Shown here: positions 19,315-36,279 of the stretch, piece after piece
Numbering within the stretch: the stretch's first letter is position 1
Layout: every line of letters starts with the position of its first letter
Source of the DNA: a virus
Taxonomy: Duplodnaviria > Heunggongvirae > Uroviricota > Caudoviricetes
IMG/VR virus record: IMGVR_UViG_2917393062_000005
Span: 1-36,279 of that record
Length of the DNA stretch: 36,279 bases
Reading direction: 5' to 3' (one strand)
Position numbers and translations under genes: made by a program
The notes under the pieces: generated by a model
What the model saw: only the letters and a program-made list of their open reading frames with translations
Databases searched by the model: none
Told to the model about the DNA's origin: nothing

Positions 19315-20115
19315 TTAACCGCGCTTCGCCTTCTGCGTCGCGGTGGTTTTTCGTGTTGCAGGTTTCCGCGTTGTCTTTTTACTTTTGCTGCTTTCGTCCT
19401 GCGCCTGCTGTGCGCTGGCGTCTTCTGATGCGGCTGCGGAATCGGCTTTTTTCAGGGCGCGGGAAAGGGTTGCAATCTCGCGTTTCACACCTGCGTTCGG
19501 GTTCAGCTGCATCGCTTCGCGCAGCAGCTTCAGTGACAGGGCCATGCTGTCCGCATCGGTCAGGCCACGGCGGGCAAAGGCGCACGCCTTGCATAATTTG
19601 GCGCGTACTTCGTCCGGCATATCCTGGTCGGTGACAATCTCCCGGAGGGTGTCCAGTGGTTCGATAAAGGCGGACAAATCCGCGTCGGCATCCGTCCCGG
19701 CCTGCGTCAGTACCGGGTTGCAGATTTCTTCGGTCAGTACCGTGGCAGCAGTACGGCCAAAGTTATCCGGCATGATGAGGTTGTGATGGACCACATACGC
19801 ACCAATACGCAATGCCAGCGGAAGATCGCCACAGTCAATCGCCCACACCATCAGCGTGGCAATCACCTCATCCTGCTGCCCGCCGTCAGCCTCCAGCGTT
19901 CCTTCAATCCAGCCGGAAAAGTCCGGTAACAACTCTTTTTTGATGGCGGCTTTGGCGCTTCTGGCCTGTACGCCCTTAAGTCGGGCCTGTGCCAGACGCA
20001 GACGATACAGCACCTCTTCATGCGCGGTACGTGCGGCGTGATCCACGCCTTCATTCGCCCGGCCTGCGCGCTGCGCCATCACGTTCTGCCAGTGTTGCTG
20101 TGCAGGGGTAATCAT
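19315..20115 (-). CDS. M: Terminase endonuclease (small) subunit M
   Basis: 266 aa after N; basic Lys/Thr-rich C-terminal tail; position and size match P2 gpM. Confidence 0.8.
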   Translation of the reverse strand: MITPAQQHWQNVMAQRAGRANEGVDHAARTAHEEVLYRLRLAQARLKGVQARSAKAAIKKELLPDFSGWIEGTLEADGGQQDEVIATLMVWAIDCGDLPLALRIGAYVVHHNLIMPDNFGRTAATVLTEEICNPVLTQAGTDADADLSAFIEPLDTLREIVTDQDMPDEVRAKLCKACAFARRGLTDADSMALSLKLLREAMQLNPNAGVKREIATLSRALKKADSAAASEDASAQQAQDESSKSKKTTRKPATRKTTATQKAKRG

Positions 20116-22226: not shown

Positions 22227-23978
22227 ATGATTCAGGACGCTTTTGTGCGCCAGCGTGCGCGGCAACTTTACTGGCAGGGTTATCCGCCCGCAGAAATATC
22301 ACGTCTGATGGGAATAAACCCGAACACGATTTATGCGTGGAAAAAACGCGACCAGTGGGATGAAACGCCACCTGTGCAGCGTGTCACGCAGTCCATCGAT
22401 GCGCGCCTCATCCAGCTTACTGAAAAACAGAATAAAACAGGCGGTGACTTCAAGGAAATAGACCTGCTGACCCGGCAGCTTAAAAAGCTGCATGATGGCC
22501 AGCCGGATGTGATGACCGCAGGAAAGAAAGGCCGGGCGAAAAAACTCAAAAATCATTTCACGCCGGAACAGATTGCCGCACTGCGGGAAAAAATCATCAG
22601 CAGGCTGGAGTGGCATCAGCGGGGCTGGTTTGACTCCCTGACCCTTTGCAGGGAAGCCGGGATACGTAACAGGATGATCCTGAAATCCCGACAGATTGGG
22701 GCGACTTGGTATTTTGCACAGGAAGCACTGCTGATGGCGCTGCGTGACGATGTGGCGCAACCTTACCAGCGTAACCAGATTTTTTTGTCTGCGTCGCGTC
22801 GTCAGGCGTTCCAGTTTAAAAGCATTATTCAGAAGGCCGCGGCTGAAGTTGATGTGGAGCTGAAGGGGGGCGATAAAATCATCCTCTCCAACGGCGCAGA
22901 GCTGCATTTTCTCGGTACTTCTGCTGCGACGGCACAGTCCTACACAGGCAATTTTTATTTTGATGAATTTTTCTGGGTCAGTCGCTTTGCTGAACTGCGC
23001 AAGGTGGCTGGCGCTATGGCAACCCTCAGCGGGCTGCGACGCACCTACTTCTCCACGCCATCAACCGAAACGCACGAGGCATACGTCTACTGGAACGGCG
23101 ACCGCTGGAACGAAAAAAAGGCCGCGCATAAACGCCAGCGTTTTTCTGTGGACTGGAAAACGCTGCATAACGGGCTTATATGCCCCGACCGGACGTGGCG
23201 GCAAATTGTCACGCTGGAAGATGTGGTTAATCACGGCTGGAAACACACCGATATTGATGAAATTCGTGATGAAAACACCGAAGACGAGTTCCGCAATCTC
23301 TATATGTGTGAGTTTGTCCGCGAAGGGGAATCGGCATTTAACCTGAATATCCTGATTGGCTGCGGCGTTGATGGATACGACGACTGGAAAGACTGGAAAC
23401 CTTTTGCTCCCCGCCCGATGGGGAATCGTCCGGTATGGATTGGGTATGACGCAAACGGCAGCAGTGGAAACGGCGACAGTGGCGCGGTGTCCGTGGTGGT
23501 TCCTCCGGCTGTTCCTGGTGGCCGTTTTCGAACGGTGGAGACGCGACGCGTTCAGGGGCTGGAGTTTGAAGAACAGGCCAGAGTCATTGAAGAGTTCACG
23601 TGTCGCTACAACGTGGAACACATCGGCATTGATGTGACGGGCGGGAACGGGGAGGCTGTTTATCAGATAGTGAAACGGTTTTTCCCTGCTGCTATTCCGT
23701 ACACCTTCACGCTGTCATCAAAACGGTCGCTGGTACTGAAAATGCTGCAAATAATGCGTGCCGGGCGGTGGGAATACGATCGCGCCGAACGCGAGCTGGT
23801 CGCGGCCTTTAACGCCGTGCGTAAGGTGAAAACACCGGGCGGCTTTATCACTTACGAAACGGACCGCGCGAGGGGGATCAGCCACGGCGACCTTGCGTGG
23901 GCAACCATGCTTGCTGTCATTAACGAACCAATTGGCGGCGAAGGAGAAAACGAGCGTTTCACGGTTATGGAGTTCTGA
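22227..23978 (+). CDS. P: Terminase ATPase (large) subunit P
   Basis: 583 aa; N-terminal HTH-like MIQDAFVRQRARQLYWQGY...IYAWKKRDQWD typical of P2 gpP; followed by the portal gene. Confidence 0.92.
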   Translation: MIQDAFVRQRARQLYWQGYPPAEISRLMGINPNTIYAWKKRDQWDETPPVQRVTQSIDARLIQLTEKQNKTGGDFKEIDLLTRQLKKLHDGQPDVMTAGKKGRAKKLKNHFTPEQIAALREKIISRLEWHQRGWFDSLTLCREAGIRNRMILKSRQIGATWYFAQEALLMALRDDVAQPYQRNQIFLSASRRQAFQFKSIIQKAAAEVDVELKGGDKIILSNGAELHFLGTSAATAQSYTGNFYFDEFFWVSRFAELRKVAGAMATLSGLRRTYFSTPSTETHEAYVYWNGDRWNEKKAAHKRQRFSVDWKTLHNGLICPDRTWRQIVTLEDVVNHGWKHTDIDEIRDENTEDEFRNLYMCEFVREGESAFNLNILIGCGVDGYDDWKDWKPFAPRPMGNRPVWIGYDANGSSGNGDSGAVSVVVPPAVPGGRFRTVETRRVQGLEFEEQARVIEEFTCRYNVEHIGIDVTGGNGEAVYQIVKRFFPAAIPYTFTLSSKRSLVLKMLQIMRAGRWEYDRAERELVAAFNAVRKVKTPGGFITYETDRARGISHGDLAWATMLAVINEPIGGEGENERFTVMEF

Positions 23979-25024
23979 TGAGCAGAAAAAATAAAAAAGT
24001 GCGCATGAGTTCACGCATTGATCTCGCTGATGCGCTCAGGAAAGAATCGTCGCTCAGTGCATTCACATTTGATGGTCCTTACCGCCTGACCGGGCATGAC
24101 CTGCTGGACAATATGTACTGTGCTGATAACGGGCGATGGTATGAAACCCCGGTGGACTGGTACGGTCTGGCAAGAGCTGCCCGGCAAACGTCCTGGCATC
24201 AGTCTGCGCTTTACTTTAAGCGCAATGTATTGCTCGGCTGCTATATTCCGCACCCGCTGCTTTCCCGGCAGGATTTCTCGGCGCTGGCGCTGGACTGGTT
24301 TGTGTTCGGTAACGCATTCCTTGAGCTTCGAAGCAATATGCTCGGCGAACCGCTTAAATTACGGCACGCCCTGGCGAAATACATGCGACGCGGAAGCGAT
24401 CTTGAATCATGGTGGTATGTGCAGGATGGCAAGGACGCGTTCCAGTTTCGCCCTGGCAAAGTGTGCCACCTGATGAATCCGGATATTAACCAGGAAATCT
24501 ACGGCATGCCGGAATATCTTGGCGCATTACTCTCGGCCAGCCTTTCTCATTCGGCGGACATGTTCAGAAAACTGTACTACGACAACGGATCCCACGCCGG
24601 GTGCATCATCTACATCGGTGCAGCGCAGGTAAACCGCGAAAGCATGGACTCCCTGAAAGAAACGCTACAGGGGGCACGTGGTGGTGGTGCGTTTAAAAAC
24701 GTGCTCATTCATGCGCCCAACGGGGGCAAAGAGGGGGTGCAAATTTTGCCGTTCCAGCAGATCACCGCAAAAGATGAGTTCATGAATGTTAAGGCGGCAT
24801 CCCGTGATGATGTGCTGGCTGCGCACCGCGTTCCGCCGCAACTGATGGGGGCGATGCCGGGTGAAAAAAGTGCGTTTGGTGATGTGGAGAAGGCCGCGCG
24901 GGTTTACGCAATTAACGAGCTGATGCCCGTCATGGAGGCCATGAAGCACATCAATGACTGGCTTGGCGAAGAGGTGATCCGCTTTAACCCTTACGCACTG
25001 TTAGACACCCAGCCCACATCCTGA
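23978..25024 (+). CDS. Q: Portal protein Q
   Basis: 348 aa, start overlapping the P stop; size and position match P2 gpQ. Confidence 0.9.
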   Translation: MSRKNKKVRMSSRIDLADALRKESSLSAFTFDGPYRLTGHDLLDNMYCADNGRWYETPVDWYGLARAARQTSWHQSALYFKRNVLLGCYIPHPLLSRQDFSALALDWFVFGNAFLELRSNMLGEPLKLRHALAKYMRRGSDLESWWYVQDGKDAFQFRPGKVCHLMNPDINQEIYGMPEYLGALLSASLSHSADMFRKLYYDNGSHAGCIIYIGAAQVNRESMDSLKETLQGARGGGAFKNVLIHAPNGGKEGVQILPFQQITAKDEFMNVKAASRDDVLAAHRVPPQLMGAMPGEKSAFGDVEKAARVYAINELMPVMEAMKHINDWLGEEVIRFNPYALLDTQPTS

Positions 25025-25051
25025 CGCGCTTCGCTTGTCTGCTGCTTCGCC

Positions 25052-25074
25052 GGGGCATAAAAAATTTATGCCCC
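25052..25074. repeat. Perfect 10-bp-stem palindrome GGGGCATAAA-AAA-TTTATGCCCC just past Q
   Basis: Seen in sequence; no U-tract, so either a terminator-like hairpin or a binding site. Confidence 0.4.
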
Positions 25075-25329
25075 GACTCTCCAGCTCCTGTATCAGTCAG
25101 ATAGTTTCACGACGCTTTCCAGTTTATCGCCACCATCGACGGTCAGACTCTTACGCAATCCCACCGCGTTGACTGCATGTTCTCGCCGTCTCAGTGCGAT
25201 TTTGACGGCCTTACCTTTCACCCCATCAAATCAAAAGCCCTCACGTCTTTTTCACGTTCAGCGTGAGAAATACAGCCATTCTGTTGTATCTCTGCGACAT
25301 CGTTCAGGGAATGCTATTTACCCCCTGAA

Positions 25330-25420
25330 ATGCGGGCTGTTCCCCCGTCACCTACGCGCAGAAAAAACGCGTTTTTTTGTGCACGCACGGATCCTTGACG
25401 GATCCAGCCGCCACGCGGGC
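25330..25420. other. Approximate cos (cohesive end / packaging) region
   Basis: In P2-like phages cos lies next to Q; G/C-rich motifs here (TGTTCCCCCGTCACC, GCCGCCACGCGGGCC) loosely resemble the P2/186 cos core as recalled. Position is approximate. Confidence 0.25.
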
Positions 25421-25448
25421 CGGAAGGGCAAAAAGTCGTTCAAAAAAA

Positions 25449-25478
25449 TTGTGCAATTTTGTGCACTATTGTGCATTG
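25449..25478. repeat. Three tandem 10-bp iterons TTGTGCA(A/C/T)T
   Basis: ttgtgcaatt / ttgtgcacta / ttgtgcattg in exact 10-bp register, next to the hairpin that ends the hotspot gene. Confidence 0.6.
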
Positions 25479-25483
25479 AAATA

Positions 25484-25506
25484 AACGCCCTGGAGGAGGG
25501 CGTTTT
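25484..25506 (-). terminator. Hairpin terminator after the 135-aa hotspot gene
   Basis: AACGCCC-TGGAGGA-GGGCGTT stem-loop immediately past the stop at 25509. Confidence 0.5.
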
Positions 25507-25508
25507 AC

Positions 25509-25916
25509 TTATCTTTTATAGCCTTGCCCCTTCCTGGCCAACGCCCTGATGGCCGGGCGTGCCAACACCATATTTTGGCAATGATGAATTGCCCGGCAAA
25601 ATTCATCTCTACCCATTGGATGCTCAACTGGCAATGTTAAATACAGGTTCCATGCGTCGCCTAAAAGTTGGGCTATCTTTTGTTCTTCAGATGTCAGCAA
25701 GCAAGCGGTATCCGTAAAATAATCATACTTTTCATGTATGTTATTTAACGGTTTTGTCTGTAGTGCAGCCTGAGCTATACGGTATGCCTGAAGCATACGG
25801 GCGTCGTTGATATCCATTCCGAACGGAATTTCTGATGATTGTGACTCTGCATCTTCAAGCCTGGCAATTTCTTTACGTAAGAAGTATTTCAACTCTTGTT
25901 TCTGTTTTCTGTTCAT
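25509..25916 (-). CDS. Hypothetical protein (about 135 aa) at the cos-proximal accessory locus
   Basis: ORF with AAGGA RBS before ATG at 25916 (MNRKQKQELKYF...); no family recognised. Occupies the tin/old-equivalent position of P2. Confidence 0.6.
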   Translation of the reverse strand: MNRKQKQELKYFLRKEIARLEDAESQSSEIPFGMDINDARMLQAYRIAQAALQTKPLNNIHEKYDYFTDTACLLTSEEQKIAQLLGDAWNLYLTLPVEHPMGRDEFCRAIHHCQNMVLARPAIRALARKGQGYKR

Positions 25917-26012
25917 GCTTTTTTCCTTTTTCTCTGTCAATGTGTTGCATTGTGTCCCCCTTGTTTATGTTCCCGGATTAAAGTCATCAGGCGGATGCGC
26001 CCTGATGTTGTG

Positions 26013-26328: not shown

Positions 26329-27288
26329 TTACTCCTTGTCCATTGCGTACAGCCCATTAACCAGAGCAAACTGTGGCACCCCGTCCGCGATGAAAGTCGC
26401 ATTAACTCCGCAGGCTTCGCGGATAGCGGGTGCCACAATCTCCGCCCCTCCACCGACAACCATCACCCGCCCGTAACCCGAAAAACCCGCCAGCGCGCGG
26501 ATCACGCGTTGTTTCAGTGTTTCTTCCTTTTCACGAATAACCGCCATCAGGCTGGCGTAATGCGCGTCATTGTGGATGTGCTGGCGCAGCCAGGCTTCAT
26601 CATGGCGATGTTCGATAATGGTATTGGCGATGTGGTGACTGGTGCGCATACCGTTAGTGGCCATCACCGACAGTACGGCATCGGCCATCAGAGAAACGCC
26701 TACGTGTGGATCGCAAAACACCTGGCTGATACCTGCCAGTTGCCCCTGAACCTTTGCCACATCCAGCGTGGTTCCGCCCAAATCCACAATCAGCAGGGAT
26801 TCAAACGGACTCATGTCAGCCAGTGCCTTAAAGCCAGCCGGAATGGATTCAGGCATAACCCGCACGTTACGGATAGTGAATGCTTCGCCGTTCTGGTACT
26901 CCACCGGGCGCATAACGTTCGCTTTTTTGCGGTTGATGTTGGCCATGTCCGGCTGTGCGTTTGTGTCGAAATACTCGCTCAGTGGCAGGGTGACAACCAC
27001 ATCCACCTCCTGTGGCGTGATGCCTGATTTGACCAGCGCGTGATGAATGGCAATGACATTTACATCGCTGTATTGGTATTGCGTGTCGGTTGTCTGGACA
27101 AAGCGATCGCTGACCGGATCAAAACCATAGCGCACTCCATCAAGCATGTAGTTCGCGGGCTGCATGCCACCGAACGGCGCAGACCATTCCGACTTGAAGC
27201 TGTTCGGGCTGATGGCGTTGCGGCGTTCGCCGTTCTCAGTCCATGCCAGCTTGATGTTGGTGGAGCCGTCGTCGATACAAATTTTCAT
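26329..27288 (-). CDS. parM: ParM/StbA actin-like partition ATPase
   Basis: 319 aa with the ParM motif series: IDDGSTNIKL, ISPNSF, QYSDVNV, HHAL, QPDMANI.RKKAN, VMPESIPAG, DLGGTTLD, GISQ, GVSL, VGGGAE, LVNGLY. Confidence 0.85.
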   Translation of the reverse strand: MKICIDDGSTNIKLAWTENGERRNAISPNSFKSEWSAPFGGMQPANYMLDGVRYGFDPVSDRFVQTTDTQYQYSDVNVIAIHHALVKSGITPQEVDVVVTLPLSEYFDTNAQPDMANINRKKANVMRPVEYQNGEAFTIRNVRVMPESIPAGFKALADMSPFESLLIVDLGGTTLDVAKVQGQLAGISQVFCDPHVGVSLMADAVLSVMATNGMRTSHHIANTIIEHRHDEAWLRQHIHNDAHYASLMAVIREKEETLKQRVIRALAGFSGYGRVMVVGGGAEIVAPAIREACGVNATFIADGVPQFALVNGLYAMDKE

Positions 27289-27440
27289 GTCGCTTTTCCT
27301 TATGTTGATTAATTAATCGTTTACGGGATTCTGAAATCCCGTTTTTGCCTGTTTTGCGCGCACTTCATGTTTTATGGCACGTTTTTTGCTCATTTACGGG
27401 ATTTGTGAATCCCATTTCTGTCTGTTTTTTGTTTCCACTG
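27289..27440. repeat. Two about 36-bp direct repeats, each with an 8-bp palindrome, upstream of parM; candidate parC-like centromere/operator
   Basis: TTTACGGGATTCTGAAATCCCGTTTTTGCCTGTTTT (about 27320-27355) and TTTACGGGATTTGTGAATCCCATTTCTGTCTGTTTT (about 27393-27430); the second lies within the A 3' end. Also a 12-bp palindrome GATTAATTAATC at 27306-27317. Confidence 0.5.
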
Positions 27441-30172
27441 GTCAGGCCACCCCGCAGCAGGTCTGCTTTGCGGTGGGCGCGTTCAGTGGTTTCACTGATT
27501 CTCTGTGCGTGCTCTGCGTCACGGATGGCGCGCAGCATGTCAGAAAGCACGGTAACGGGGGTTTTCATGGTGTTCTGGTCCTGCTGAAGTGTGGATGCCA
27601 GACGTGCGGCGGCTTCAGGGTCTGATGCCCCCAGCTGTGCCAGATAGCTGGCGACCGGGTTATGGCGGATCTCCGTGCTGCTTACGCCGTGATTACGGCT
27701 CAGGCGCTGCCAGAGCTGCGTGATTCGGCTGTCCGGGCGGGTATCCGGTTTGCGTACAATTTCAAATCCCTGCGGTGCAATGATGCTGCCGTCAACGTAC
27801 AGACTGCCGCCCCGTAACAGGTGCTGCATCTGTTGTTCACCGATATGCAGGCCGAGAGATTCAGCAGACTCCCGCCATTCTTTAGCGAGTAATTCGTGGT
27901 TATCAGGCAAAGGCCGCTGCTGTTTGCGGCTCTGTGTCCAGCTCTGCATTTCATCACTGCTGTTTTTTGCCTGTTTGTCACGCAGCGAACGCATCAGCGC
28001 CCGGCGTTCGTGCCGTTTCAGTGAGCGCATCCATTCGTTCACTTCAACGCCGTCAGGGAGCTGCGGCCACGGTGCTGGCCGTTCTTCCGGCTGTTCTGTC
28101 CCGTTGTTGTCCGTTTCCTGTACACGGGGACAGTTATTGCCACGAGTCCAAGGGGCGGCAGGGCCGCCCTGAAGGTCAAAACCATTTTCGTGGGTGCTGT
28201 CTTCCGCTTCCGGTTTACGTCTTACCAGCTTCCAGTTATCCGGGTGCGTGCACACACGGGAGGATTCCCCGATGAGTGGCGACCAGATCCCGTAAATCTG
28301 TACACTCTGTTCGCCGTAATCGTTCAGCTCATCTGCGAGGTCGTAGGCTGTGCGAATCAGGTAGTCCTTGCGCGGAACAAGTACGCCACCCTGTTTTTCA
28401 ATGTAGGTGGCAAAACACCCGGCATCAGCGGCAGCAAGAACCGCATCCATTGCGTCATCCTTCAGCCGTTGCGGGCCTTCCGGGTTGCGTGCCATCTGGC
28501 TGGCAAGGCGGCGGAGTTCACGCCACACCTGACGGGAGGGAATGCCAAAGAACTGGAACTGGCGGACCCGGTGAAGGCGCGCCCAGCCGATGGCGCGTTC
28601 CACGCTCTCGGCCATTGATTTTCCGGTTTCGTGGTCAACGCGTGGCTTGCCCGTTTTCGGGTCGATGCCATCCACGGCGCGGCTGTCCAGGTTCTTTCCG
28701 ATGTAGGTGGCGATGTAGCTGGTTGGTGTGCCTTTTGAGCCGTCGACATACTCCACCTTAAAGCGCGGAGTAATATCATTGCCCAGCTCGTGGCGGTCTT
28801 CCTGAATGGCAATATCGCGGGTGATGGCCACGATGCTGTCGATTTCTTCCGGATGAGCAAAGACCATCATGTGCCAGTGCACGGTGCCGTCATGGTGAGG
28901 CTCCACCGTGCGGATGCCATACCAGCGCAGGCCGTCGCGGTTCAGTTTTTTGCGGACCGCCGCAAAAAACGTGTTAACCAGGTAATCGCTGGAGTCGCGC
29001 ATGGTGGCTCCGTTCCATTTGGGATTCGGATGACCGTTCTCTGTTGTGGCGTGGTATTTTGACGGGCAGGTGACAGTCAGAAACACCGCTTTGTCGCCAC
29101 GGGCTTCGGCCAGAAGTTCCAGCCCCTTCATGGTGGCCATCATTTCTGCCTTACGGTGAACTGGGTTACTTACTCCCGCGTAATACACTGTCTCGAGATC
29201 AATAGTGAACCCGTCTTCGTTTTCCAGCATGAAACTTTTCAGAAAATCGCGTGTTTTCTCGCGCTGTGCGCGAAACTCGCTTAACGCGTCCTGGCTCAGA
29301 TAGGGCGATGTTTTTCTGGAAACCAGACAGGCGGCGCGGAGTTGTTCTTCTCTCCACTCGCAACGTAACAGCCACAGTTTGCGTTTCCACCATTGCGCAC
29401 AGGTCAGGCGAAGGATTGCGCCCGGTAACAGTTCCGTATCCGGATCGCTCTTGTTCAGGGCTTCGTAATGTGGCGGCATGATGTGCAGGCATAATGCGAT
29501 ACGGGCCAGCATCCGGTAAGCCTTCAACATTACATCCATGGTCAGCTCGCCATCTCTGGCACCAAAGCCATCGCAGAGTGTTTCGAAGGTGCTGCTGAAC
29601 ATCGCCGCCGTCATGGTGGCCAGCGTCTGTATCTGGTGCTTGTTGAGCTGCGGCAGGTAAAGCAAATCGTCCAGGCGTTCACGCCCGGCAAGGGAGCGAT
29701 AACCCGGTGTCAGCCAGCGTCCGTCAGTGCGATCCAGACGTTCGAATATTTTGCGCAGGGTTCCGCGTGCATAGCGTTCAGCCTGCCAGCTCTTTTTGCC
29801 TTTCTGACGATCGGCTTCCTGTTTTTTGCGCAGGAAGGAGAGGTGGCGAATAAGCGGATCGCGCAGATAGGACGGCAGCAGGCGCAGCGAGGCCATGGCT
29901 TCATCCACCGCGCCGCGTGCCTGTTTTCTGGCGTCTCCTGCCAGTGTGATGGTTTTGTCCTGTTTTTCCTGTGCGTCCAGGCTTTTATTAATCAGGTTGC
30001 CCAGCGGCGTGGCGGAGAACGCCGCATCAGCCATTTCCTGGCAGCGCTCGTTCTCTGCCCGGTAGGCATCCAGCCAGGAGGAAAGCGCGGATTCAGGAGT
30101 GGGGATCTCCGTTCCTTCACGCCCCACTGCGTGGCGCGGTTGTTGCCAGTCCCTGATGTACTCTGCCGTCAT
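27365..30172 (-). CDS. A: Replication initiation endonuclease A (rolling-circle, GPA family)
   Basis: 935 aa; tandem-tyrosine active-site motif PTSYIATYIGKNLDS typical of P2 gpA-like proteins; located upstream of the cos-proximal locus. Confidence 0.85.
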   Translation of the reverse strand: MTAEYIRDWQQPRHAVGREGTEIPTPESALSSWLDAYRAENERCQEMADAAFSATPLGNLINKSLDAQEKQDKTITLAGDARKQARGAVDEAMASLRLLPSYLRDPLIRHLSFLRKKQEADRQKGKKSWQAERYARGTLRKIFERLDRTDGRWLTPGYRSLAGRERLDDLLYLPQLNKHQIQTLATMTAAMFSSTFETLCDGFGARDGELTMDVMLKAYRMLARIALCLHIMPPHYEALNKSDPDTELLPGAILRLTCAQWWKRKLWLLRCEWREEQLRAACLVSRKTSPYLSQDALSEFRAQREKTRDFLKSFMLENEDGFTIDLETVYYAGVSNPVHRKAEMMATMKGLELLAEARGDKAVFLTVTCPSKYHATTENGHPNPKWNGATMRDSSDYLVNTFFAAVRKKLNRDGLRWYGIRTVEPHHDGTVHWHMMVFAHPEEIDSIVAITRDIAIQEDRHELGNDITPRFKVEYVDGSKGTPTSYIATYIGKNLDSRAVDGIDPKTGKPRVDHETGKSMAESVERAIGWARLHRVRQFQFFGIPSRQVWRELRRLASQMARNPEGPQRLKDDAMDAVLAAADAGCFATYIEKQGGVLVPRKDYLIRTAYDLADELNDYGEQSVQIYGIWSPLIGESSRVCTHPDNWKLVRRKPEAEDSTHENGFDLQGGPAAPWTRGNNCPRVQETDNNGTEQPEERPAPWPQLPDGVEVNEWMRSLKRHERRALMRSLRDKQAKNSSDEMQSWTQSRKQQRPLPDNHELLAKEWRESAESLGLHIGEQQMQHLLRGGSLYVDGSIIAPQGFEIVRKPDTRPDSRITQLWQRLSRNHGVSSTEIRHNPVASYLAQLGASDPEAAARLASTLQQDQNTMKTPVTVLSDMLRAIRDAEHAQRISETTERAHRKADLLRGGLTSGNKKQTEMGFTNPVNEQKTCHKT

Positions 30173-35274: not shown

Positions 35275-36279
35275 ATGTCAATTAAGAAGCTCGAAGATGG
35301 TCGTTATTTGCTGGACATCAGGCCGAACGGACGCAAGGGAAAGCGCGTGCGTAAGGTATTTGACAAAAAATCGGTAGCGGTGGCCACTGAACGCTACATC
35401 ATGGCGAACGCTGAAAAGCGGGAATATATACAGGGCTACCGTGATCGCCGAACGCTAAATGATTTGCTTGAGTTGTGGTGGATGTATCACGGTCAACACA
35501 GGCGTAAGGCGGAAGAAGACCGAAAACAACTGCGCAACATAATCAATGAGCTTGGCGCTGATATGCAGGCTGTGGATCTTGATAAGCTGAAAATTATCGC
35601 GTGGCGTTCTCAAAAGATAGCTGATGGATTGAAACCGTCATCTGCTAACAGGTACATGAATCGGTTATCCGGAATGTTTACCGTGCTGAAAAAAATAGGT
35701 CTTTGGGATGCAGAACATCCGGTAAGGGGAATTTCTATTCTTTATGTATCTCCACGAGAAATGGCGTTCCTGTCACAGAAGGAAGTTGCGTTATTGCTCG
35801 ATACATTGGAGGGCGATTACTGGCGTGTTGCTCTTTTGTGTTTAAGCACAGGAGCGCGCTGGAGTGAAGCCTGTAAGCTCCGTGGTGAACAGATAGTTCA
35901 TAACCGAGTGACGTTTCTTGAAACCAAAAATGGCCGAAAGAGAACAGTGCCAATTTCGCAGGCAGTTTGTGAGGCGATCAAAACCAGAGAAACAGGCAGC
36001 TTGTTTGAGGTGAAGTACCGGGAATTCTGTCTGGCGCTGAAAAGAGTTAAGCCCGATTTGCCAAAAGGCCAGGCTGCACATGTGCTGCGGCATACGTTCG
36101 CCAGCCATTTTGTGATGAACGGAGGAAACATTATTGCGCTTCAGAAGATTCTTGGCCACGCAACCATTCAGCAAACAATGGCATATGCACATTTTGCACC
36201 GGATTACCTGCAGGATGCGGTGGCCCTTAATCCGCTGAAAGGTGGCGTAAGTGTCCACGCAGTGTCCACGGGGGATTAA
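35275..36279 (+). CDS. int: Tyrosine integrase (P2 Int family)
   Basis: MSIKKLEDGRYLLDIRPNGRKGKRVRKVFDKKS matches the P2 Int N-terminus; catalytic-region motifs LSTGARWSEA, HVLRHTFASH and MAYAHF. The ORF track starts at 35260. Confidence 0.93.
   Translation: MSIKKLEDGRYLLDIRPNGRKGKRVRKVFDKKSVAVATERYIMANAEKREYIQGYRDRRTLNDLLELWWMYHGQHRRKAEEDRKQLRNIINELGADMQAVDLDKLKIIAWRSQKIADGLKPSSANRYMNRLSGMFTVLKKIGLWDAEHPVRGISILYVSPREMAFLSQKEVALLLDTLEGDYWRVALLCLSTGARWSEACKLRGEQIVHNRVTFLETKNGRKRTVPISQAVCEAIKTRETGSLFEVKYREFCLALKRVKPDLPKGQAAHVLRHTFASHFVMNGGNIIALQKILGHATIQQTMAYAHFAPDYLQDAVALNPLKGGVSVHAVSTGD
36252..36264. repeat. Candidate attR core (TGTCCACGCAGTG) inside the int 3' end
   Basis: Identical to 1162-1174, with partial matches in the flanks. 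Confidence 0.5.

Follow-up and report, generated by a model that had tools for sequence, protein, structure and literature searches.

In phage lambda, the cosB site comprises the R3, I1, R2 and R1 elements, which are bound by the small terminase subunit gpNu1 together with IHF, and cosQ is a single short element. In phage SPP1, the pac site has boxes to either side of the cut, pacL and pacR, to which the small terminase G1P binds, and the DNA there is bent. Phages of the P2 type package their DNA from monomeric circles. Their cos sites are the closest described system for the element presented here and are placed after the portal gene Q and before a variable hotspot. A 55-bp cos core was reported as 'required for packaging' (Ziermann and Calendar 1990, as cited in PMC5694545, PMC3931495 and PMC9122126). 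The satellite P4 depends on the P2 terminase and shares just the cos signal with its helper (PMC9122126). Longer flanks of the P4 cos raised cosmid transduction about 11,600-fold and about 50,800-fold in two constructs (PMC9594776), so that sequences beyond the 55-bp core matter. The portions of this literature available to us cite the 55-bp core only, and the boxes described below as distal fall outside of it. The cosB elements of lambda are named in titles cited in PMC9611059 and PMC4669245.

The window analysed here, a stretch of 36,279 nucleotides (IMG/VR record IMGVR_UViG_2917393062_000005), is a P88-like prophage (Xuanwuvirus, Peduoviridae) of the P2 family. The gene for the portal protein gpQ is located at 23978-25024 on the plus strand (Pfam Phage_portal), and upstream of it the genes for the scaffold, the capsid and the small terminase subunit gpM (19315-20115) are encoded on the minus strand. 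Downstream of Q follow cos at 25310-25475, a cargo gene, parMR and a replication gene, and the same Q-cos-hotspot layout was found in at least 70 of the 80 prophages sampled. The intergenic region is 92-96% identical to P88-like phages and was matched in 1143 E. coli records (1142 of 5426 complete genomes). The cargo ORF (25509-25940, minus strand) differs from the cargo of P88 and lies in the cos-adjacent hotspot. Its protein (25509-25917) matched no entry in Pfam or PADLOC and a single PHROG named 'DNA ligase', over 67 residues only. Farther out, a 935-aa ORF (27365-30172, minus strand) stands in place of the gene annotated as replication protein in P88. Between the Q terminator hairpin (25051-25075) and the cos block, about 235 bp (25076-25310) are conserved in P88-like phages and not in satellites; two tiny minus-strand hypothetical ORFs annotated there in P88, one of which would enter cos, may be spurious. 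A search for RNA families delivered just a sub-threshold match to gyrA RNA, at the Q terminator hairpin.

Between Q and the cargo gene, the word TTGTGCA occurs on the plus strand at 25449-25455, 25459-25465 and 25469-25475 (distal boxes 1, 2 and 3), with starts at 25449, 25459 and 25469 and a period of exactly 10 bp. This agrees with a sequence-only reading of the region made earlier, in which three phased repeats and a candidate cos element had been noticed; that reading was right in taking the repeats for a phased array of the protein-binding type next to cos. The candidate cos is real as a prediction, since 25334-25352 agrees with the cohesive end of P2 in 13 of 19 positions. The assumption that the three repeats make up the whole array proved to be wrong: a fourth TTGTGCA follows a run of seven T at 25377-25383 (the proximal box), and the three repeats form the distal part of a larger cos architecture. 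Relative to the predicted cos 19-mer, the offsets of the four copies are +28, +100, +110 and +120. The word as such is not enriched, with 6 copies in the window versus 9.3 expected, and four of these six fall within 99 bp (25377-25475). The triple pattern was found in none of 100 dinucleotide-preserving shuffles, with up to 3 mismatches allowed. Since TGCA is its own reverse complement, the core of the boxes carries no orientation.

We consider it probable that this P88-like prophage of the P2 family has an extended cos site of about 160 bp (25310-25475), in which the three phased TTGTGCA copies serve as the distal boxes for recognition by terminase. The conserved block starts with the left flank of cos at 25310-25333, where homology to two satellite elements, described below as L126 and L111, begins at 25310 and 25316, respectively. 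Among 89 distinct P88-type segments the information content climbs at about 25319. The predicted cosN of 19 nt is located at 25334-25352 (gggctgttcccccgtcacc), with a predicted 5′ overhang GGTGACGGGGGAACAGCCC on the minus strand. This GC-rich region is homologous to mapped cohesive ends (P2, GGCGAGGCGGGGAAAGCAC); the alignment with the P2 cohesive end (GTGCTTTCCCCGCCTCGCC in window orientation) is ungapped and leaves differences at 6 of the 19 positions, the window sequence being predicted by homology. The CCCCG core of the 19-mer is the block of highest information in 71 aligned cos regions of the P2 family. From the homology with the ends of P2, P4, 186 and PSP3, of which those of P2 are annotated in the record and the others were deduced from the starts and ends of the records, we predict the 19-nt cleavage site at 25334-25352, give or take 2 nt. 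This margin of about 2 nt follows from the box offsets, which are +28/100/110/120 here versus +26/98/108/118-121 in the P2 class.

A spacer of 19 nt (25353-25371), which overlaps the palindrome AAAAAACG/CGTTTTTT (25362-25377), separates cosN from the proximal box, and P2 and P4 likewise have 19 nt ahead of the T-run. The proximal box comprises the T7 run and GTGCA (25372-25383, plus strand) and is the positional counterpart of TTTTAATGCA in the 55-bp core of P2 and P4. Read from Q outward, the order in the window is gggctgttcccccgtcacc, 19-nt spacer, tttttttgtgca; in P2 it is GTGCTTTCCCCGCCTCGCC as the 19-nt cohesive end, 19-nt spacer, TTTTAATGCA, and P4 is alike. The columns of the T-run and the TGCA of the proximal box reach nearly 2 bits. 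Next to it, ACGGATCC is duplicated on the plus strand at 25387-25405, with copies 11 bp apart and one GATC (Dam) site in each. The two Dam sites thus lie in the middle of cos; in relatives, GATC is common at this place but not universal.

Midway between the proximal and the distal boxes lies a GC-rich, dyad-like central element (ccagccgccacgcgggccggaagggc, 25404-25429; family consensus GCC.G.ACTGG). Across 71 arms, conservation peaks here, at +28 to +39 counted from the proximal TGCA. Two A-tracts on the plus strand (25430-25434 and 25442-25448) lead into the array. An A-run ahead of distal box 1 also belongs to the family consensus and mirrors the T7 run before the proximal box, and the stretch of A-tracts at 25430-25448 is a possible intrinsic bend. 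By eye, no good match to the IHF consensus WATCAANNNNTTR was seen in 25384-25448, where the A-tracts and the central element are located. Outside of cos proper, 8 bp past the third repeat, a hairpin of nine pairs (AAACGCCCT ggagg AGGGCGTTT, 25483-25505) with T following on both strands has the form of a bidirectional intrinsic terminator and borders the cargo gene. It is common to P88 and absent from most other relatives. The stretch 25418-25475 also shows 77.6% identity over 58 bp to the cro-cII intergenic region of phage 434 and its relatives, which at E = 3e-3 may be due to chance.

None of the linear phage records and IMG/VR contigs checked starts or ends at the predicted 19-mer, and a literature search brought up no publication about the ends of P88-like phages. 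The linear record LR595891.1 of a close relative (Escherichia virus P88_4B11) is broken at window position 25430/25431, corresponding to its positions 1 and 37100, just after the central GC-rich element and before the A-tract. This point is 78 bp rightward of where we predict cleavage. If this break represents the true virion ends, the cleavage site is misplaced here, and the array would still be adjacent to cos. A cut at 25430/25431 was considered because the central element loosely resembles an inverted cos, and was rejected because the collinear sites of P2, 186 and P4 are cut at the CCCCG block.

For a comparison across the P2 family, 80 P2-like prophage loci were taken from data with one genome per species. 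They were fetched via an alignment of the portal, in order to avoid selection on the repeat itself, and were anchored on the 19-mer. With the window and the reference phages added, the set comprised 72 distinct right arms. The word TGC(A/G) was present at +26/28 in 70 of the 72 arms, at +32/34 in 40, at +98/100 in 66, at +108/110 in 59 and at +117-121 in 55, where by our own estimate about 0.6 are expected by chance for each offset (2/256 per position x 72 arms); the sampled phages are related, and these counts are not independent events. Almost no such words were found outside of the listed offsets. In 65 of 71 arms, exactly 72 bp separate the proximal word from the first distal one; the other arms have 71 or 73 bp here. 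Nearly all of the sampled P2-like phages and their satellites show this arrangement. Distal box 3, the last base of which ends the conserved block, is the most variable one.

The reference phages follow the same scheme. A T-run with ATGCA is located at +26 in P2, P4, 186 and PSP3, and further ATGCA words, counted from the cohesive end, are found in P2 at +98, +108 and about +120, in P4 at +98, +108 and +121, and in 186 and PSP3 at +98, +108 and +117/121. The information profile of 71 arms has four peaks, namely the 19-mer, the T-run with xTGCA, the central GCC.G.ACTGG and the distal boxes, and is near zero between them. Over the 65 bp between the boxes P2 and P4 show only 18% identity without gaps, and the window and P2 20%, and still the boxes are in register. 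Among 137 loci with the exact P88-type 19-mer and complete right arms, all carry the four boxes at no more than 1 base from the expected offsets, and the boxes differ by point changes only, mostly in box 3. P2-type cos sites thus share precisely spaced boxes beyond the usually cited 55-bp core. The window element is a P88-type member of the P2-family cos and as such an ordinary kind of feature. Its extended set of rigidly spaced boxes has received too little description in the literature we reached. With P2, 186, PSP3 and P4 it has in common the GC-rich 19-nt region, the 19-nt spacer, the T-run with xTGCA at +26/28, the three further xTGCA words at matching offsets, the sharing of the site with satellites, and the position after Q and before the hotspot. 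It differs in the word itself (TTGTGCA versus (T/A)(A/C)ATGCA) and in a spacer to the box word that is 2 bp longer (+28 versus +26).

Satellites, which rely on the packaging machinery of a helper, retain the boxes. P4-like satellites were found through psu (62-100% identical to psu of P4), and among their 41 distinct right arms the words are present at +26, +98 and +108 in 40 arms each and at +121 in 39; one arm is shifted by a 6-bp insertion. All of these are of the ATGCA flavour, and the GTGCA flavour was seen on a different type of satellite derived from P2. A pattern scan of viral contigs detected three small elements (L111, L126 and L115) with a TTGTGCA-type cos and without the genes for the portal (Q) or the large terminase subunit (P). 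L111 and L126 carry a P2-family capsid gene, integrases, MazF and, judged by size and position, a primase-like ORF; L115 carries homologues of gpO, gpN and gpM, a primase-like ORF and an integrase. In each of these elements, the scaffold and capsid genes are directly preceded by cos and the array, which have the phage orientation. The elements resemble the phage layout minus P and Q and seem to be satellites that derive from P2 and differ from P4. The regions concerned are about 8064-10700 in L115, 1059-4059 in L126 and 1198-4199 in L111, with cos at the place where P and Q would be.

At cos, the similarity between the window and L126 is limited to 25310-25475 (79.8% identity) and stops at the last base of box 3, and L111 shares 25316-25475 of the cos neighbourhood with about 80% identity. 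Two further short matches between the window and L126 concern an integrase gene and a capsid gene. Window positions 35296-36218 correspond to 4912-5834 of L126 with 74.5% DNA identity, where L126 has an integrase-like ORF of 346 aa; it also has a second integrase of the P4 type.

The fixed 72-bp register to the proximal box, the collinearity with mapped cos sites and the retention in satellites place the boxes in the packaging signal. In a possible mechanism, several terminase protomers would read the same short word at the proximal and the distal boxes, which with 72 bp are about seven helical turns apart. The DNA between them, with its A/T tracts and the central element, may bend or loop and thereby hold both sites in one complex. 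A multimeric terminase complex would then form beside the cleavage site and make the staggered nicks that start or complete packaging. Such distal boxes could explain the packaging of P4/P2 cosmids that is better by thousands-fold with longer cos flanks (PMC9594776), and their spacing offers a concrete design rule for transducing particles.

By analogy, the cos of the window resembles lambda cosB in logic, not in sequence. Both have repeated short elements beside a site of staggered nicks, here four TTGTGCA at +28, +100, +110 and +120, with one element near the nick, the others farther away and bendable DNA between them, an arrangement thought to nucleate a multimeric terminase. In contrast to lambda, there is no homology to gpNu1 in sequence or protein, the elements in the window lie away from the head genes, and the candidate reader, the binding of which we infer, may be a helix-turn-helix fused to the large subunit. 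The SPP1 pac site likewise has phased short boxes at two separated places, which a terminase oligomer could join; it differs by headful packaging instead of cohesive ends, by belonging to an unrelated phage family and by boxes that flank the cut on both sides.

Beyond the cleavage site, every conserved element is on the side away from Q, which in the coordinates of P2 becomes the mature chromosome's right end, and on the side of Q the conservation is short, from about 7 bp (P2/P4) to about 24 bp (window and satellites). Such a distribution is also what one would see if the boxes acted on the last-packaged end as an element for termination of packaging or end processing, similar to lambda cosQ, rather than as a site of terminase assembly. 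We regard this as rather improbable: an array of several phased boxes plus a proximal copy is closer in appearance to a platform for assembly than to lambda cosQ. The distinction between initiation and termination may also be moot if monomeric circles use one copy of cos.

If terminase recognises the boxes, there are two candidates for the reader: gpM, which is the small subunit, and a helix-turn-helix domain at the N-terminus of gpP, which is the large one. The gpP gene (22227-23978, plus strand) shows Pfam matches to Terminase_5 (PF06056, 1.8e-26), HTH_23 (4.2e-7), Terminase_6N and Terminase_6C, and the helix-turn-helix domain comprises residues 6-63 (nt 22242-22415). The product of the gpM gene (19315-20115, minus strand) matches Phage_term_smal (PF05944, 4.5e-37) and PHROG 74 (1e-81); Pfam revealed no known DNA-binding domain in it, and no relative with a solved structure was found. 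With respect to the flavour of the proximal and distal words in the same genome, 95 cases were G-G, 49 A-A and 41 mixed. The flavour matches within genomes and differs between lineages, which points to a phage-encoded reader and not to a host factor. In 60 phages the predicted recognition-helix classes of gpP track the box flavour (NTxY with GTGCA, (A/P)TV(H/Q) with ATGCA and TIH with TTGCG), but this co-variation is inseparable from phylogeny, since a ranking by mutual information gives class-specific columns all along the protein.

A more far-reaching idea, which we put forward only tentatively and hold to be less likely to be right than wrong, is that the functional cos of the entire P2 family is, instead of the 55-bp core, a rigid composite of about 150 bp with 4-5 copies of a 5-7-bp word, one or two of them near the nick and another three set off from these by exactly 72, 82 and about 92 bp, that it would be read by the gpP helix-turn-helix and not by gpM, and that the word flavour would define groups of packaging specificity between helper and satellite. 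If this holds, the flavour (GTGCA, ATGCA or TTGCG) decides which helper mobilises which satellite, and it could serve as a sequence marker for predicting their compatibility.

The right border of the array coincides exactly with that of the variable region. Among the 89 distinct P88-type segments, the information is high (1.2-1.96 bits) from about 130 bp before the array through box 3 and drops from about 1.5-1.9 bits to less than 0.4 bit directly after it, and 45 different 25-mers were counted directly after box 3. Many phage matches to the window stop at 25475. Box 3 is the last conserved element before the hypervariable cargo, which fits the cos-adjacent variable and defence hotspot described for P2-like phages (PMC9122126), and its end marks sharply where the defence-gene hotspot begins. 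This position raises the question whether the boxes are conserved as regulatory or insulating parts or as a homology anchor for the exchange of cargo at the hotspot, and not for packaging. In our reading, box 3 of P2 overlaps the probable -35 region of the old-tin promoter, and boxes 2-3 of P4 form a terminator-like hairpin stem followed by a T-run next to psu, so that part of the box conservation could have other causes. The minus strand of the window also permits a weak hairpin of terminator-like form (25466-25451). A promoter scan revealed no sigma-70-like promoter in the array. However, loci differ in which gene lies next to the boxes and in its orientation, and the 72-bp register to the proximal box stays fixed; in P4, where the hotspot is on the opposite side of cos, the boxes have kept their side relative to the cleavage site. 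A recombination anchor would require neither a phased repeat nor matching proximal and distal words. A role at the hotspot in place of packaging is hence judged very unlikely.

The sequence-only reading had left open whether the array belongs to packaging or to partition. The packaging part is borne out by the fixed 72-bp spacing and by the satellites, and partition through ParMR is not, for its linkage to the array is variable or absent. The repeats are assigned to the packaging signal on this basis, and the comparison also places the likely virion ends. As a parC-like centromere, the repeats would be bound by a ParR/StbB-like protein encoded next to a ParM/StbA gene. The parC of the type II (ParMR) system of plasmid R1 is similar in that short iterons are phased at about one helical turn with a ParM/StbB-like pair nearby, and like many centromere iterons the array is phased at 10 bp. 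A matching gene pair does exist about 540-1800 bp from the array, with the ParM/StbA gene at 26329-27288 (minus strand; PF06406, PF21523) and the ParR/StbB-like Plasmid_stab_B gene (PF10784, minus strand) between the cargo ORF and parM. The array, unlike parC of R1, is wrongly placed with respect to parM: it is located downstream of the par operon, past the cargo gene and the terminator, at a distance of about 540 bp from where the parR-like gene has its 3′ end, and not upstream of parM. Among 52 P88-type loci with at least 4 kb of downstream sequence, 30 have parM, at a variable distance of 404-2236 bp from the array, and in 22 it is absent within 4-9 kb downstream. Moreover, the same array occurs in P2, 186, PSP3, P4 and the satellites, which have no parMR in the stretches examined (for P4, the whole annotated record). 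By position, linkage and distribution, the ParR centromere was rejected as an explanation of the TTGTGCA array, and we give it hardly any credence.

The position upstream of parM, which is the canonical one for a centromere, is occupied by a separate pair of 39-nt direct repeats (27317-27355 and 27390-27428), which are 79% identical and 73 bp apart. One closely precedes parM, the other falls within the terminal part of the replication gene, and each holds the palindrome ACGGGATT-N4-AATCCCGT. Judged from the sequence, these repeats (27317-27428) are a candidate centromere or operator of the ParM/StbB-like pair of the prophage.
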